Shown here piece by piece: positions 1 to 5,246 of a stretch of 5,246 nucleotides of DNA. Source of the stretch: a virus (Duplodnaviria; Heunggongvirae; Uroviricota; Caudoviricetes); IMG/VR virus record IMGVR_UViG_2529292908_000004. One strand, written 5' to 3'. The notes under the pieces were generated by a model. The model did not search any database. It had not been told where the DNA came from and saw only the letters and a list, made by a program, of their open reading frames with translations. The stretch's first letter is position 1; every line of letters starts with the position of its first letter. The translations under genes were made by a program, and so were the position numbers.

Positions 1-42
1 CGCACCGAAAATGTCAGCCAGCTGCTTTTTGTTGACTTCCAT
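1..42 (-). CDS. nohA: Terminase small subunit (Nu1 homologue), N-terminal 14 codons only; gene continues past the window start
   Basis: Minus-strand translation from ATG at 42-40 gives MEVNKKQLADIFGA, matching the N-terminus of lambda gpNu1 as I recall it. It lies immediately downstream of the cos site, as in lambda. Confidence 0.85.
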   Translation of the reverse strand, partial: MEVNKKQLADIFGA

Positions 43-290
43 TGTTCATTCCACGGACAAAAACAGAGAAAGGAAACGACAAAGGCCAAAAAGCCCGCTT
101 TCAGCACCTGTCGTTTCCTTTCTTTTCAGGGGGTATTTTAAATAAAAACATTAAGTTACGACGAAGAAGAACGGAAACACCTTAAACCGGAAAATTTTCA
201 TAAATAGCGAAAACCCGCGAGGTCGCCGCCCCGTAACCTGTCGGATCACCGGAAAGGACCCGTAAAGTGATAATGATTATCATCTACATA
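43..290. other. Lambda-type cos site: cosN with the 12-nt cohesive end at 220-231, cosB Nu1-binding repeats and an AT-rich IHF-like segment at about 60-180, cosQ-side flank at 232-290
   Basis: Minus strand of 220-231 reads GGGCGGCGACCT, followed by CGCGGGTTTTCGCTATTTATGAAAATTTTCC, which matches my memory of the lambda left end. Inverted GTCGTTTCCTTTCT-type repeats at about 64-82 and 108-124 and a CGTTTCCGTTCTTCTTC element at about 160-178 correspond to the R1/R2/R3 arrangement. The flank 232-250 reads as the lambda right end (GATCCGACAGGTTACG on the minus strand). Confidence 0.85.
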
Positions 291-430
291 TCACAACGTG
301 CGTGGAGGCCATCAAACCACGTCAAATAATCAATTATGACGCAGGTATCGTATTAATTGATCTGCATCAACTTAACGTAAAAACAACTTCAGACAATACA
401 AATCAGCGACACTGAATACGGGGCAACCTC

Positions 431-664
431 ATGTCAACGAAGAACAGAACCCGCAGAACAACAACCCGCAACATCCGCTTTCCTAACCAAATGATTGAAC
501 AAATTAACATCGCTCTTGAGCAAAAAGGGTCCGGGAATTTCTCAGCCTGGGTCATTGAAGCCTGCCGCCGGAGACTGTGCTCAGAAAAAAGAGTTTCTTC
601 TGAAGCAAACAAAGAAAAGAGTGACATTACTGAATTGCTCAGAAAACAGGTCAGACCAGATTGA
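431..664 (+). CDS. ynfO: Small YnfO/YlcI-like prophage protein, 77 aa; possible ribbon-helix-helix DNA-binding fold (inferred)
   Basis: 77-aa ORF in the position ynfO occupies in Qin (between the Nu1 gene and ydfO). The segment RNIRFPNQMIEQINIALEQKGSGNFSAWVIEACRRRL has a strand-helix-G-x-S-helix pattern typical of RHH proteins. No obvious Shine-Dalgarno before the ATG. Confidence 0.65.
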   Translation: MSTKNRTRRTTTRNIRFPNQMIEQINIALEQKGSGNFSAWVIEACRRRLCSEKRVSSEANKEKSDITELLRKQVRPD

Positions 665-721
665 AGCAATTTAGATAATCGTGCAGACTACGCCCCCTCA
701 TATCACATGGAAGGTTTATCT

Positions 722-1132
722 ATGGATCAGGTAGTCATTTTTAAACAAATATTTGATAAAGTTCGAAACGATTTAAACTATCAATGGTTTTATTCTGAGC
801 TAAAACGTCACAATGTCTCACATTACATTTACTATTTAGCCACAGAGAATGTTCATATTGTATTAAAAAATGATAATACAGTGTTATTAAAGGGCCTAAA
901 AAACATTGTGTCTGTCAAATTTTCAAAGGATAGGCATCTTATAGAAACGACCTCTAATAAGCTGAAATCCAGAGAGATCACATTTCAGGAATACAGAAGA
1001 AACCTTGCTAAAGCAGGAGTTTTTCGGTGGGTTACAAATATCCACGAACAAAAAAGATATTACTATACCTTTGATAATTCATTACTATTTACTGAAAGCA
1101 TCCAGAAAACTACACAGATCTTACCACGCTAA
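722..1132 (+). CDS. ydfO: YdfO/YbcV-family (DUF1398) prophage protein, 136 aa from the ATG at 722; alternative upstream ATG at 707 would give 141 aa
   Basis: Open frame 707-1132. GGAAGG at 709-714 sits 7 nt before the ATG at 722, so 722 is the better-supported start. Translation resembles the Qin YdfO / DLP12 YbcV family from memory. Confidence 0.75.
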
Positions 1133-1283
1133 ACCATAACGTCCGGCTTCTCTCACTCCTGAGCCGGACTGCATTGGTTTAATAAAAACCATCAACAATT
1201 GTGATTTAGATATTCGGAACCATTCAAATATAACAAAACCCCGTAAAAACGAGGTTTATGGATAAATTTTATTATTGAATACA

Positions 1284-1456
1284 TCAGATTAAATTAATCT
1301 TGACATCATAGCTTTCAAGACCCGTCATTTTTTCCCGTGCGGTAAACTGAATACTGGTAACTTCTTTCCCGGTCTTTTTCTTAAGTTCAATAATTTTTTT
1401 GTTATATATTCAGAAATATCTGCTTCTGCTTTTGTTTTTAAGTTTTCAATATTCAT
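1284..1456 (-). pseudogene. gnsB: gnsB-like gene (GnsA/GnsB family) interrupted by a -1 frameshift at an A7 run (plus-strand T7 at 1394-1400)
   Basis: From ATG at 1456 (GAGG 5 nt upstream) the minus strand reads MNIENLKTKAEADISEYITKK, then runs out of frame to a stop after 43 codons. The -1 frame from the A-run reads IIELKKKTGKEVTSIQFTAREKMTGLESYDVKINLI*, and the two parts together align to the 57-aa GnsA/GnsB family. The ORF track missed it because both pieces are short. Confidence 0.6.
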
Positions 1457-1627
1457 CATTTCCTCTTTTAGTCTGTTATGACTTTCCAGTTACACAGTAA
1501 GTCGATTATATGGTGCAAACGTGTAAAAGATAAGATGAAACATCGCAATAATCAACATACGATAGTCTAAATTTTACACAAACAGACAAAGAGAATTTTC
1601 CTGAATTATCAATGCAATAGCATCAAA

Positions 1628-1783
1628 TCAACTCAAGAGCCTTATTGCTGCTTCCAGAATTTCTTCTGAAGTAACATGTCGATCCGCGGCTACATAAATG
1701 ACTTTATGATCTCCGGTCAGAGATGGAAACCCTGCGGCCATTACAGTAAGGTGTGTTTTTTCGCCATTTGGATATTCACGCAT
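1628..1783 (-). CDS. ynfN: YnfN-like small protein, 51 aa from the ATG at 1783; in-frame alternative starts at 1804 (ATG) and 1819 (GTG)
   Basis: Open minus-strand frame 1628-1819. The 51-aa length and the position between gnsB and cspI match Qin ynfN as I remember it. GGAG lies 12 nt upstream of the 1783 ATG; start choice is uncertain. Confidence 0.55.
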   Translation of the reverse strand: MREYPNGEKTHLTVMAAGFPSLTGDHKVIYVAADRHVTSEEILEAAIRLLS

Positions 1784-1901
1784 GATGGTGTTAACTCCAG
1801 TCATCGCTGGCACTACCACTGCTGGTTCAGAGTTAAAAAAACTATGATTTTTTTCATGATGTTACCGTAGTATGTGAGTATCCATCGAATAGACACCAAG
1901 C

Positions 1902-1921
1902 AAAAAAGCTCCCGAAGGAGC
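1902..1921 (-). terminator. Rho-independent terminator on the minus strand: GCUCC-UUCG-GGAGC hairpin followed by U6
   Basis: Plus 1908-1921 is GCTCCcgaaGGAGC. On the minus strand this is a 5-bp GC stem with a UUCG tetraloop followed by TTTTTT (plus A6 at 1902-1907). It lies downstream of cspI and upstream of ynfN. Confidence 0.6.
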
Positions 1922-2128
1922 CTTCATTTTCACTTTTTTAAATCCAACGACAGACGGCTGGCATTTAAGTATTGTGAAATATTATCAAATGTAATCATCA
2001 TTGATTTACAAAAGATACATTTTGCCCCGAAAGGATTCATGTCAGAAACATCAAAAGATGATGTTCTATACTGGGAACCATGACAACACGGGCATCTAAA
2101 GTGAATATGGTTTGTAATATTGTCTACC

Positions 2129-2341
2129 TCAAAGCGCCACTACATGAACAGCGGCAGGACCTTTAGGTCCGTTCTCAATACCAAATTCAACTTCCTGATT
2201 CTCAGTTAATGTTTTGAAATCGTTGCTCTGAATTGCTGAGAAATGGACAAACACATCTTTGCTGCCATCTTTCGGCGTGATGAAACCAAAACCTTTTTCA
2301 GGGTTAAACCATTTCACTAAACCAGTCATTTTGTTAGACAT
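2129..2341 (-). CDS. cspI: Cold shock protein, CspA family, 70 aa
   Basis: Translation [70 protein letters not shown] carries the RNP1 (KGFGFI) and RNP2 (VFVHF) motifs and matches CspI from memory. AAGG lies upstream of the ATG as in cspA. Confidence 0.93.
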
Positions 2342-2492
2342 AATTATTACCTTTTGAAGAAATTAGCCCTTGGGCAGAATGGTCCGAAAAAAAATATCAG
2401 AGAGAAAAACCAACAAGGAAATCTCAAGAGGTACAAATAATAAAATTATAACAATGACTGCTTCAGATAAATTTGTAACAAACCAGAACACC

Positions 2493-2521
2493 ATTAACGC
2501 ATGATTAACCACCCATAGCAA
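2493..2521 (-). promoter_or_regulatory. Candidate cspI promoter: -35 TTGCTA (2521-2516), 17-bp spacer, -10 GTTAAT (2498-2493), with an AT-rich upstream region
   Basis: The hexamers resemble the cspA promoter (TTGCAT / CTTAAT). The predicted start near 2486 gives a leader of about 145 nt, typical of cold-shock csp genes. Minus strand 2522-2580 is AT-rich, like an UP element. This is sequence pattern only. Confidence 0.35.
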
Positions 2522-2703
2522 GGATTACTTTTGTAAAGAAAAACACAGCAATGAAAGAATAGCTTTATTTATTAATAAAACGTGTCATTCTGATTAAGAC
2601 CTTTTATCTTACCCTTAAGATTTCAGGAATTTTGGCTCATGGAAGAGTCCTTTTTATTTAAATTTTACATTCCGCGATGTAAATGTTCCGATTTAATATT
2701 ACC

Positions 2704-3727
<1,024 letters not shown>

Positions 3728-3731
<4 letters not shown>

Positions 3732-4039
3732 AGATATTTATGATGAGGACGCTCGTGCTTATTGGCAGGATTTTCAATCTTAAAGGAGTACTGATGCTGC
3801 AGATAAGACTCAACTTTTTCTGACAATTTTTCTGCTACTTCCAGGAAGACTTGCCGGACGCTCCTTCTGGCTGCTGCCTCATAAAACTCCAGCGCAGCTC
3901 CTTCAACACGGTCCATGGCGACATCCAGGTCAAAAATTTCACCGTCAAAGCGTTCTTTGTCCTGTAAGGCTACAGTTACCGTAACTTTATTCTCAAAATT
4001 ACGGACTCCTTTCACAACCAGTTCATAGTCTTGAGTCAT
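3728..4039 (-). CDS. ydfR: YdfR-family (DUF1327) protein, 103 aa, located between the holin and endolysin genes
   Basis: 103-aa ORF with no transmembrane segment; matches Qin YdfR in length and position from memory. Starts 4 nt after the essQ stop and overlaps the rrrQ start in ATGA. Confidence 0.85.
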
Positions 4040-4043
4040 TGGA

Positions 4044-4259
4044 TTACTCTCCTCTCGCAGCCTTACGCCTGTCTTCTTTAATCTTGAAATAAAGATTTGT
4101 CAGATACGTCAGCAGGCCAAAAACCAGGCTACCCAGCACACCGATTGCAGCCCACTGTGACGGAGTTACTTTATCGAGTAACTGCAATGCCCAGAAACCA
4201 GCATTACCCGCCGATGTGCCATAGGCAACACCTGTTGTTAACTTATCCATTGATTTCAT
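4044..4259 (-). CDS. essQ: Pinholin (phage 21 S-type class II holin), 71 aa, with a dual-start motif (Met1 at 4259, Met4 at 4250)
   Basis: Translation [71 protein letters not shown] has two transmembrane segments and a charged C-terminus, closely resembling S21. The further N-terminal extension in the ORF track (to 4334) is not supported. Confidence 0.9.
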
Positions 4260-4478
4260 ATCCTCACCCCGATGTACACGGATGGTGCAATATGTTTGAA
4301 AAGATCGGAGTCTACGGGGTAGTTTTGACAGCACACGTTGTTCTCAACGGCGCTAAAAAAACATACACATTAAAAATGTGGGTAATTATTTTGAAAGAAA
4401 GTCATATATAAAATAATAATACGAGAAATGTTTTCATATTTAGTGTACTGTATACGGCCATTTATACAGGAAAAGCCT

Positions 4479-4649
4479 ATGTCAGAACGTAAAAACTCAA
4501 AATCACGCCGTAATTATCTCGTTAAATGTTCCTGCCCAAACTGCACCCAAGAGTCAGAACACAGTTTTTCAAGAGTACAAAAAGGTGCCCTTTTGATCTG
4601 CCCTCATTGCAACAAAGTATTCCAGACAAATCTTAAAGCTGTAGCCTGA
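4479..4649 (+). CDS. Small zinc-ribbon protein, 56 aa, with two Cys pairs (CSCPNC ... CPHC), divergent from the holin; possibly YnfU-like
   Basis: ATG at 4479 is preceded by AGGA 7-8 nt upstream. The basic N-terminus (MSERKNSKSRRN) followed by CxCxxC-x19-CxxC is a zinc-ribbon arrangement. The upstream in-frame ATG at 4428 lacks a Shine-Dalgarno. The YnfU identification is from memory and is uncertain. Confidence 0.6.
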   Translation: MSERKNSKSRRNYLVKCSCPNCTQESEHSFSRVQKGALLICPHCNKVFQTNLKAVA

Positions 4650-4705
4650 TTGATTTTATTAGTAACAAGTATTTTTTATATTTTAATAATATATTTAAAG
4701 CAGAT

Positions 4706-4731
4706 AATAAAAAACCCGCCTGAGCGGGTTT
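4706..4731. terminator. Hairpin terminator AAACCCGC-CTGA-GCGGGTTT: strong in the minus direction (followed by T6), weaker in the plus direction (T3)
   Basis: Perfect inverted repeat at 4712-4719 / 4724-4731. On the minus strand the GC stem is followed by TTTTTTATTATCTG. It could end the plus-strand zinc-ribbon gene and/or act as a tR'-like terminator for minus-strand transcripts entering the lysis cassette. Confidence 0.55.
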
Positions 4732-4956
4732 GAGATTGTGGTGCTTTTTGTGGGAGTCATCCACTTACGCACTTTGTTTTGCCATGCCAGCAGTTAGCTT
4801 CTGCTGTAAAACTATTCATGCAGCAAACCTGCACTTCACCACAATGGTTAGCATACTTTTCCTGATTAAGATTTTGCCAAATATGCTAGCCATTGTTTCA
4901 TGTATTGGACCTCCTTACTTTTTATTAAAGAGATCCAATATTCACTACTCTGTCCG

Positions 4957-5246
4957 GGTGATGCTGCCAACTTACTGATTTAGTGTATGATGGTGTTTTT
5001 GAGGTGCTCCAGTGGCTTCTGTTTCTATCAGCTGTCCCTCCTGTTCAGCTACTGACGGGGTGGTGCGTAACGGCAAAAGCACCGCCGGACATCAGCGCTA
5101 TCTCTGCTCTCACTGCCGTAAAACATGGCAACTGCAGTTCACTTACACCGCTTCTCAACCCGGTACGCACCAGAAAATCATTGATATGGCCATGAATGGC
5201 GTTGGATGCCGGGCAACTGCCCGCATTATGGGCGTTGGCCTCAACA
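4957..5246 (+). mobile_element. IS1 insertion sequence, left end (first 290 bp of about 768 bp); continues past the window end
   Basis: Starts at 4957 with the IS1 terminal inverted repeat GGTGATGCTGCCAACTTACTGATTTAGTGTATGATGG, followed by insA in the expected position and frame. Confidence 0.93.
5012..5246 (+). CDS. insA: IS1 InsA (transposition repressor / N-terminal part of the InsAB' transposase); GTG start, truncated by the window end
   Basis: From GTG at 5012 (GAGG 5 nt upstream) the frame reads (M)[77 protein letters not shown], which matches IS1 InsA. The track ORF at 4983-5195 is in a different frame and is spurious. Confidence 0.9.

Follow-up and report, generated by a model that had tools for sequence, protein, structure and literature searches.

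Organisation of the ynfU locus

The stretch of DNA analysed here (5,246 nucleotides, hereafter the window) matches the Qin prophage of E. coli K-12 over positions 1–4956, with nine substitutions, all located at 45–179, a single-nucleotide deletion at about 1393 and complete identity over the remainder; from 4957 to its end it is occupied by an IS1 element, whereas the K-12 prophage runs on toward cspB. The genes of this region and the hairpin that follows ynfU are as follows:

1930–2118, co-directional with cspI: gene of the YmcF/YnfQ family (PF23641), directly downstream of cspI
2129–2341, minus strand: cspI (K-12 annotation), with a cspA-type thermoregulator leader
2704–3201, minus strand: rzpQ, spanin (K-12 annotation)
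3198–3731, minus strand: rrrQ, lysozyme (K-12 annotation)
3728–4039, minus strand: ydfR (K-12 annotation)
4044–4259, minus strand: essQ, holin of 71 residues (Pfam Phage_holin_2_1, E = 4.4e-34; K-12 annotation)
4479–4649, plus strand: ynfU coding sequence, specifying a basic tail (residues 1–16) and then a predicted four-cysteine zinc ribbon with an invariant S-E-H-S-F block
4712–4731, minus strand: intrinsic-terminator-like hairpin, AAACCCGC-TCAG-GCGGGTTT then TTTATTATCT, consisting of a G+C-rich stem and a T-run

ynfU, the sole plus-strand gene of this stretch, is divergent from the holin gene essQ, with 219 bp separating the two start codons. The original prediction for this DNA had proposed a 56-residue plus-strand frame whose basic product carries a CxCxxC…CxxC pattern, inserted on the opposite strand between the terminator and the holin gene; both the protein (10 K+R versus 3 D+E, pI 9.6, net charge about +7) and its site are borne out by the sequence. 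Equally correct was the assignment of this site to the Q–S interval, regarded as a location for cargo genes: antiterminator Q is absent from the window and lies about 1.5 kb further right in K-12 and intact relatives, from which the order of the interval (Q(ydfT)-cspF-cspB-ynfU-essQ in K-12) is taken.

The hairpin at 4712–4731, 63 nt past the ynfU stop codon, is the only one nearby, and it is oriented for the other strand; the plus strand has just TTT after the stem. In K-12 the same hairpin follows cspB, a gene convergent with ynfU, and it probably ends cspB transcripts and perhaps, weakly, those of ynfU. A weak Rfam Trp_leader match at 4706–4790 (21.7 bits versus 41) corresponds to this terminator hairpin.

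Coding evidence and predicted zinc ribbon of YnfU

The 56-codon frame opens with the ATG at 4479 and closes with a TGA that ends at 4649, encoding the 56-residue protein MSERKNSKSRRNYLVKCSCPNCTQESEHSFSRVQKGALLICPHCNKVFQTNLKAVA. Its DNA shows 100% identity with ynfU from the Qin prophage in K-12 strain MG1655, the surrounding 501 bases match many E. coli genomes, that of MG1655 among them, without a single difference, and the locus is carried by 1653 out of 5426 complete genomes of this species. RefSeq labels the frame 'ynfU: putative zinc-binding protein YnfU' (K-12 protein WP_211180497.1), and two curated families match it over essentially their whole profiles, namely Pfam PF23499 (YnfU; 107.3 bits, cut-off 27, E = 3.5e-31, profile positions 1–49 of 49) and NCBIfam NF038384 (79.4 bits against a cut-off of 36, E = 1.1e-22, profile positions 1–51 of 52). 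In addition to these scores, it has the two CPxC knuckles and the real reading frame that characterize the family; in sequence, in its position between essQ and cspB and in its knuckles, the gene itself shows no difference from K-12 ynfU.

Comparison of 76 distinct ynfU coding sequences from 85 loci yielded a median dN/dS of 0.117 over 829 pairs limited to dS values of 0.2–2, indicative of purifying selection, and the two remaining frames are closed by stops in nearly every pair. In a survey of 80 species (one genome per species, with the open reading frames within 4 kb called and clustered), the start codon is ATG in 78 cases and GTG in the other 2, and is preceded by a GGA Shine–Dalgarno core in all 80. 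A 73-residue version, which a mechanical list of open reading frames begins at ATG 4428, was rejected: an upstream in-frame stop occurs within 17 codons in 39 of the 80 species, and indels near the Shine–Dalgarno element break its frame.

The start of ynfU was found by Weaver et al. in 2019 through Ribo-RET/Onc112 ribosome profiling; a western blot of a chromosomal SPA-tag fusion confirmed the protein, whose level was the highest among the small proteins newly identified in that study and which, assayed in tagged form in MG1655 grown in LB at 37 °C, was present in both exponential and stationary phase (bioRxiv 10.1101/511675). PIRT-seq independently re-detected the gene (PMC12350097). The gene is thus already known, having been named, annotated and experimentally detected, and it is virtually certain that the frame in the window is ynfU and genuine. 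That the frame arose by chance in AT-rich spacer DNA, for which its small size speaks and nothing further, is excluded by the dN/dS value and the closure of the other frames, by the two curated family matches, by the published detection of start site and protein, and by the conservation of the cysteine pattern described below; the original prediction was right to treat the frame as a gene. Its description of an uncharacterised zinc-ribbon protein stands insofar as no function is assigned to YnfU in the literature searched that mentions ynfU, but not insofar as the frame was already annotated, with families of its own and evidence of translation.

The cysteines of YnfU follow the pattern C17-x-C19-P-x-C22 ... 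C41-P-x-C44, in which the knuckles C19-P-N-C22 and C41-P-H-C44 are about 18 residues apart and enclose the S-E-H-S block. Across 28 sequences reaching down to 30% identity, P20, C22, S29, L39 and C44 are invariant, and C19, S26, H28, C41, P42 and F48 are kept in at least 90%; the cysteine spacing on which the original prediction had staked its validity is conserved. Members at 30–42% identity lack C17 while keeping C19-P-x-C22 and C41-P-x-C44, so that the zinc ligands of YnfU are predicted to be C19, C22, C41 and C44. The zinc site is deduced from motifs, no metal analysis of YnfU being present in the literature searched; two CPXC zinc knuckles were also noted by Weaver et al., together with a moderate modelling match to PA0128 (bioRxiv 10.1101/511675). 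The basic composition of the protein recurs in distant members. The family is narrow and confined to Enterobacterales, with 41 matches at E ≤ 0.001 among 1.84 billion cluster representatives; its named hosts belong to Enterobacteriaceae and include Escherichia, Citrobacter, Klebsiella, Raoultella, Enterobacter, Kosakonia, Salmonella, Atlantibacter and others.

An AlphaFold model based on a wider alignment (pLDDT 75.8 overall, 81–87 over residues 11–50) has a zinc-ribbon topology with both ends disordered. The best Foldseek matches of this model are archaeal ribosome-bound small zinc-finger proteins and HVO_2753 (probability 0.77–0.97, E 0.08–0.26), and a profile search of PDB sequences retrieved Tim15 (E 0.012), ribosomal protein L44e/eL42 (E 0.028) and a Methanosarcina ribosome protein (E 0.19), the last of which was matched by both methods; none of the matches obtained amounts to a significant structural relative. 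The archaeal C(P)XCG micro-proteins (HVO_2753 and its ribosome-bound relatives; PDB 6ydh, 9o17_AZ, 9fhl_C and 7zhg_C) share with YnfU a size of 50–65 residues, the CPxC knuckles, the ribbon topology and a basic character. As modelled, the fold of YnfU is a generic zinc ribbon from which little more can be read, and of its features the conserved basic composition alone leans toward nucleic-acid binding. A likeness to the zinc domain of PyrI, the regulatory chain of ATCase, was discarded: Foldseek matches to it were obtained with a model of pLDDT 65 and are gone with that of pLDDT 76, and hhalign gave the PyrI C-terminal domain a probability of 4.3% over 17 columns.

The region upstream of ynfU

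Between the essQ and ynfU start codons, the following elements can be recognized:

4391–4420, plus strand: promoter-like TTGAAA-18 nt-AATAAT, 10 of 12 consensus matches; Escherichia version only
4423–4428, plus strand: candidate weak −35 element GAGAAA; family consensus (G/A)AGC(T/A)A, 17 nt upstream of TAnnGT
4443–4451, plus strand: candidate −10 block GTGTACTGT; family consensus GTGTAtGGT, with hexamer TACTGT at 4446–4451
4448–4469, no strand: perfect 7-nt inverted repeat CTGTATA-N8-TATACAG; Escherichia version only
4468–4472, plus strand: Shine–Dalgarno element AGGAA, read from the sequence, 6–10 nt before the ATG

Several blocks in the 60–70 nt before the ATG are conserved across genera, in the order (G/A)AGC(T/A)A, 17 nt further on (C)GTGTAtGGT, then CC(A/C)TT and the Shine–Dalgarno element. 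The T, A, G and T of TAnnGT are invariant in the leader alignment, and this hexamer lies 27–32 nt before the ATG in 78 of the 80 ynfU loci; the longer form GTGTAnnGT is found at this place in 56 of the 80, compared with 0.019 occurrences per kb elsewhere, and also precedes a YnfU homologue of 38% identity. Moreover, an invariant G precedes the invariant T of this hexamer by exactly 21 nt, corresponding to the −33/−12 geometry of a sigma-70-type promoter. Judging from this conservation and spacing, the blocks probably represent a weak −35 (4423–4428) and a −10 element (4446–4451) of a ynfU promoter, a placement that would imply a leader of about 20–25 nt.

The site at 4391–4420 has a stronger-looking consensus than the conserved blocks but is unconserved outside Escherichia; such a consensus match is by itself no proof of function. 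The inverted repeat at 4448–4469, which overlaps the −10-like hexamer and extends into the Shine–Dalgarno element, is likewise missing in other genera. On its left side it resembles a LexA half-site. As a complete LexA (SOS) box the repeat was rejected, its CTG-to-CAG gap being 16 nt rather than 10 and the element being absent in other genera, and so was a Zur box: a Zur-like left half-site stands alone (GAAATGTT, 4425–4432), with no right half and no counterpart in other genera.

RNAalifold detected no consensus pairing of the kind expected of a thermosensor or riboswitch in 50 ynfU leaders. No Rfam family matches the ynfU leader, and RF01766 finds nothing there even at E ≤ 1, its sole match in the window being upstream of cspI (2102–2487, minus strand, 112.8 bits); ynfU differs in this respect from cspA-type cold-shock genes, and the missing leader, together with good expression at 37 °C, argues that it is not a classical cold-shock gene. 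Shimada et al. (2017) reported RpoH- and RpoE-holoenzyme SELEX peaks in the essQ–cspB spacer and credited them to essQ (PMC5493296), ynfU not yet being annotated; relative to ynfU these peaks can be located no better than to about ±150 bp, and no clear sigma-E or sigma-32 consensus was seen near ynfU.

Genomic contexts and possible roles of ynfU

Eight of 50,697 phage records carry ynfU. In the Qin-like phages PhiR42_1 and HannyBb the order is the same as in K-12, with ynfU divergent from the holin gene, and Tritos and 2H10 carry ynfU at 98% identity at the level of the gene match. Klebsiella phage ST13-OXA48phi12.4, whose copy is 59% identical, has ynfU on the opposite strand between a Q-like gene and a holin with no EssQ match, and in phage PHB10 the gene is located by the integrase, with a cspB/cspF-like pair as its neighbours and well away from any holin. 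Every examined phage or prophage copy that has lysis genes shows ynfU in the orientation opposite to the lysis and late genes. In HannyBb, ARAGORN found no tRNA array between Q and ynfU, and the many tiny open reading frames annotated in this interval look like over-calling.

Beyond phages, the picture is dominated by cold-shock genes. A csp paralogue lies within 1 kb of ynfU in 52 of the 80 species loci, of which 32 have it convergent and within 600 nt downstream, 13 downstream on the same strand and 7 upstream, and a cold-shock-domain protein is the sole neighbour family common to most ynfU loci. A functional tie to the holin and late operon, as implied by the original prediction, is not reflected in these counts, given that an RrrQ-like lysozyme is found within 4 kb in 9 of the 80 loci and Q in 6; overall, about 10 species have ynfU beside lysis genes and about 70 have neither a lysis gene nor Q within 4 kb.

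Many copies of ynfU lie among housekeeping genes. In Klebsiella and Raoultella these include alpha-acetolactate decarboxylase and a LysR regulator, and lldPRD and an aldehyde dehydrogenase are further examples of such flanks. No csp gene is nearby in 28 of the 80 loci, and two distant homologues are solitary and also without csp, one between lldPRD and an oxidoreductase and the other among DinI, Usp and ydhR. Given roughly nine csp genes per 5-Mb genome, about 0.4% of 2-kb intervals would be expected to contain one, so that the linkage of ynfU and csp exceeds chance by a wide margin; the 80 species share ancestry, and the count of 52 overstates the number of independent cases. Counting independent ynfU contexts by shared neighbours was uninformative as a result of single-linkage chaining through generic families.

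Taken together, these observations suggest that ynfU is an autonomous cargo gene, or moron, whose own promoter would allow expression in the lysogen independently of Q-dependent late transcription. With csp paralogues of the cspB/cspF/cspI type it may form a small accessory set, found in chromosomal islets and in some lambdoid Q–S intervals, which would not be part of the lysis machinery and would serve a host-level function; the zinc ribbon and the Lys/Arg-rich tail may contact RNA or ribosomes and so take part in the RNA handling that involves the adjacent Csp chaperones. Autonomy is suggested by the position on the strand opposite to the lysis genes, by the conserved promoter-like blocks and by the stand-alone chromosomal copies, and the gene is situated, as expected of a moron, in the Q–S interval. 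The link to csp is based on the proportion of loci with a paralogue within 1 kb, on the frequent convergent arrangement and on the same pairing in PHB10; against it stand the loci and the two distant homologues that have no csp gene nearby, and the hitch-hiking of two small cargo genes is a fair alternative reading of the linkage. RNA or ribosome binding is suggested by the basic charge, the Foldseek matches to archaeal ribosome components and the weak profile matches to L44e/eL42 and the Methanosarcina ribosome protein. Considered as a whole, from the identity of the gene through the csp-associated cargo module to the RNA or ribosome mechanism, this account has nearly, though not quite, an even chance of being right; a part for YnfU in Csp-type RNA handling through RNA or ribosome binding is, taken separately, a tentative proposal.

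A broader version of this proposal, which must be regarded as doubtful, is that YnfU works together with Csp chaperones by binding RNA or the ribosome and that enterobacterial csp genes and tiny zinc-ribbon proteins form recurrent two-component stress modules, carried by lambdoid phages in the Q–S interval to condition the lysogen. If so, YnfU would pair with Csp proteins of the cspB/cspF type and YmcF/YnfQ with those of the cspG/cspI type, and the modules would tune translation or mRNA fate. Like YnfU, YmcF/YnfQ (PF23641) is tiny and cysteine-rich (about 60 residues, CPCC...CxxC) and encoded beside a csp paralogue; its gene is co-directional with that csp gene, whereas ynfU is usually convergent. 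Homology between YnfU and YnfQ was rejected on an hhalign probability of 1.8%.

As the main rival to this reading, YnfU might instead modulate one larger host or phage protein, as many bacterial small proteins do, with the zinc ribbon acting as a protein–protein module. The invariant surface block S-E-H-S-F-x-R-V-Q-K-G could provide an interface, and the discoverers expected protein modulation for most small proteins (bioRxiv 10.1101/511675); weighed against the conserved, strongly basic composition, the absence of any conserved neighbour besides csp that would hint at a partner, the insignificance of all matches and the failure of PyrI mimicry, this is a credible but rather unlikely role.

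Regulation of the late or lysis operon, toward which the original prediction leaned, either by YnfU as a transcription factor at the region upstream of S or by antisense transcription or collision with Q-dependent transcripts, would accommodate the divergent apposition of ynfU and holin gene in Qin-type phages and prophages, the adjacency to the holin gene in the Klebsiella phage whose holin has no EssQ match, and the orientation that is always opposite to the late genes. It is rendered improbable by the many species loci without lysis gene or Q, by the copies with housekeeping flanks, by the PHB10 copy near integrase and csp genes, and by strong purifying selection in non-phage contexts, which argues for a host-level function. 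Antisense transcription or collision would follow from the geometry, and since intact inducible phages share the arrangement, it does not at any rate conflict with normal lytic growth. The case of ynfU warns against inferring function from adjacency to a holin.

The Q–S interval and other moron sites often carry genes involved in conflicts between phages, and with its position in this interval and its expression from the prophage in uninduced cells ynfU could be a lysogenic-conversion factor for superinfection exclusion, defence or anti-defence; this is very improbable, as YnfU is matched by no PADLOC model and only weakly by PHROG families of unknown function, and most copies lie in chromosomes, alone or together with csp. 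A part in zinc handling (buffer, chaperone or zinc-responsive factor) would be in line with the predicted single Cys4 site and the Zur-like left half-site upstream in E. coli, but is the least probable of these roles given that the half-site lacks its right-hand counterpart and is not found in other genera, that one structural zinc per 56 residues is typical of a fold-stabilising site and that no zinc-uptake genes are conserved nearby.

As a discovery, ynfU is of limited weight because the gene was already named, annotated and detected; as an orphan lead, YnfU keeps some value, being one of the better-expressed small proteins of E. coli K-12 that await characterization. The predominance of csp over lysis linkage, together with the promoter-like block conserved upstream, is a modest, testable addition that is unmentioned in the literature searched.

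In its organisation, ynfU under the cargo-gene reading is analogous to morons of the lambda bor type, which are likewise small genes, placed at a late-region junction, read against the late and lysis genes, and active in the lysogen without induction. The two are unrelated in sequence: bor, a lipoprotein gene, follows Rz, whereas ynfU is placed before S and encodes a zinc ribbon of cytoplasmic type; moreover, unlike bor-type morons, most members of the YnfU family are found outside phages.

Upstream region of ynfU and the spacer between essQ and cspB

Immediately before ynfU, the Escherichia version of the locus, and only this version, carries a perfect inverted repeat that overlaps the -10-like hexamer and extends to the Shine-Dalgarno sequence of the gene:

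4448–4469, inverted repeat CTGTATA-N8-TATACAG

In its left half it resembles one arm of a LexA box, yet the two arms are not spaced as LexA requires, and a LexA site at this position was accordingly rejected. Genomic SELEX has placed RpoH- and RpoE-holoenzyme peaks in the K-12 spacer between the holin gene essQ and the cold-shock-protein gene cspB (window about 4260–4960); these were assigned to essQ at a time when ynfU had no annotation (PMC5493296), and they might belong to ynfU instead.

A second csp-associated Cys-rich gene and the ynfN neighbour

In addition to YnfU, the window encodes a second small Cys-rich protein beside a csp gene, YnfQ, bringing the number of such pairs to two; homology between YnfQ and YnfU is not detectable. 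The genes discussed in this section are:

1628–1819, ynfN
1930–2118 (−), ynfQ, a tiny Cys-rich protein (CPCC...CxxC; Pfam YmcF-like) with an annotated ATT start
2129–2341 (−), cspI, 10 nt upstream of ynfQ

YnfN is a relative of a 76-aa protein, matching no Pfam or NCBIfam family, whose gene lies divergent from ynfU, about 400–650 nt upstream and on the other strand, in 23 of the 80 species (loci L041, L050, L065 and 20 others). In Qin, ynfN and ynfU are separated by cspI and the lysis cassette, as if these had been inserted into an older ynfN-ynfU-csp islet.

Departures from K-12 at the two ends of the window

All nine substitutions relative to K-12 fall within 135 bp at the left end of the window (45–179), in what corresponds to the nohA–ynfO interval of K-12, and this clustering is suggestive of a boundary created by recombination or mosaicism. 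The 4.7 kb that follow are identical to K-12 except for a 1-nt deletion at about position 1393, which shifts the frame of gnsB (1325–1459) so that its product is 44 aa long, compared to the 57-aa GnsB of K-12.

The right end holds the following elements, the last of them an IS1 copy:

4834–4818 (−), second terminator-like site
4841–4896, inverted repeat of 18 nt, 89% complementarity
4903–4940, inverted repeat of 15 nt, 87% complementarity
4957–5246, left end of IS1, starting at 4957, with the insA reading frame next

The two repeats and the terminator-like site fall within the stretch that corresponds to the cspB 3′ region of K-12. At the junction point, K-12 has no IS1 and runs on into the cspB 3′ region, its cspB stop codon lying 57 bp further on; the exact junction was found as a single piece in no complete E. 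coli genome of the collection searched.

Loci in unexpected taxa and in phage HannyBb

Four ynfU-bearing contigs are labelled Veillonella parvula (MAG; L008), Vagococcus sp. (L030), Kocuria sabuli (L040) and Bacillota MAG (L042); their gene content is enterobacterial, and they are therefore probably contaminant or mis-binned.

In phage HannyBb, the deposited annotation of the interval between ynfU and Q (L002 4300–7350) lists about 20 tiny "hypothetical" ORFs and lacks cspB and cspF, yet tblastn finds both there at 100% identity. This interval contains no tRNA genes, and the distance from cspF to Q is about 2 kb longer than in K-12.
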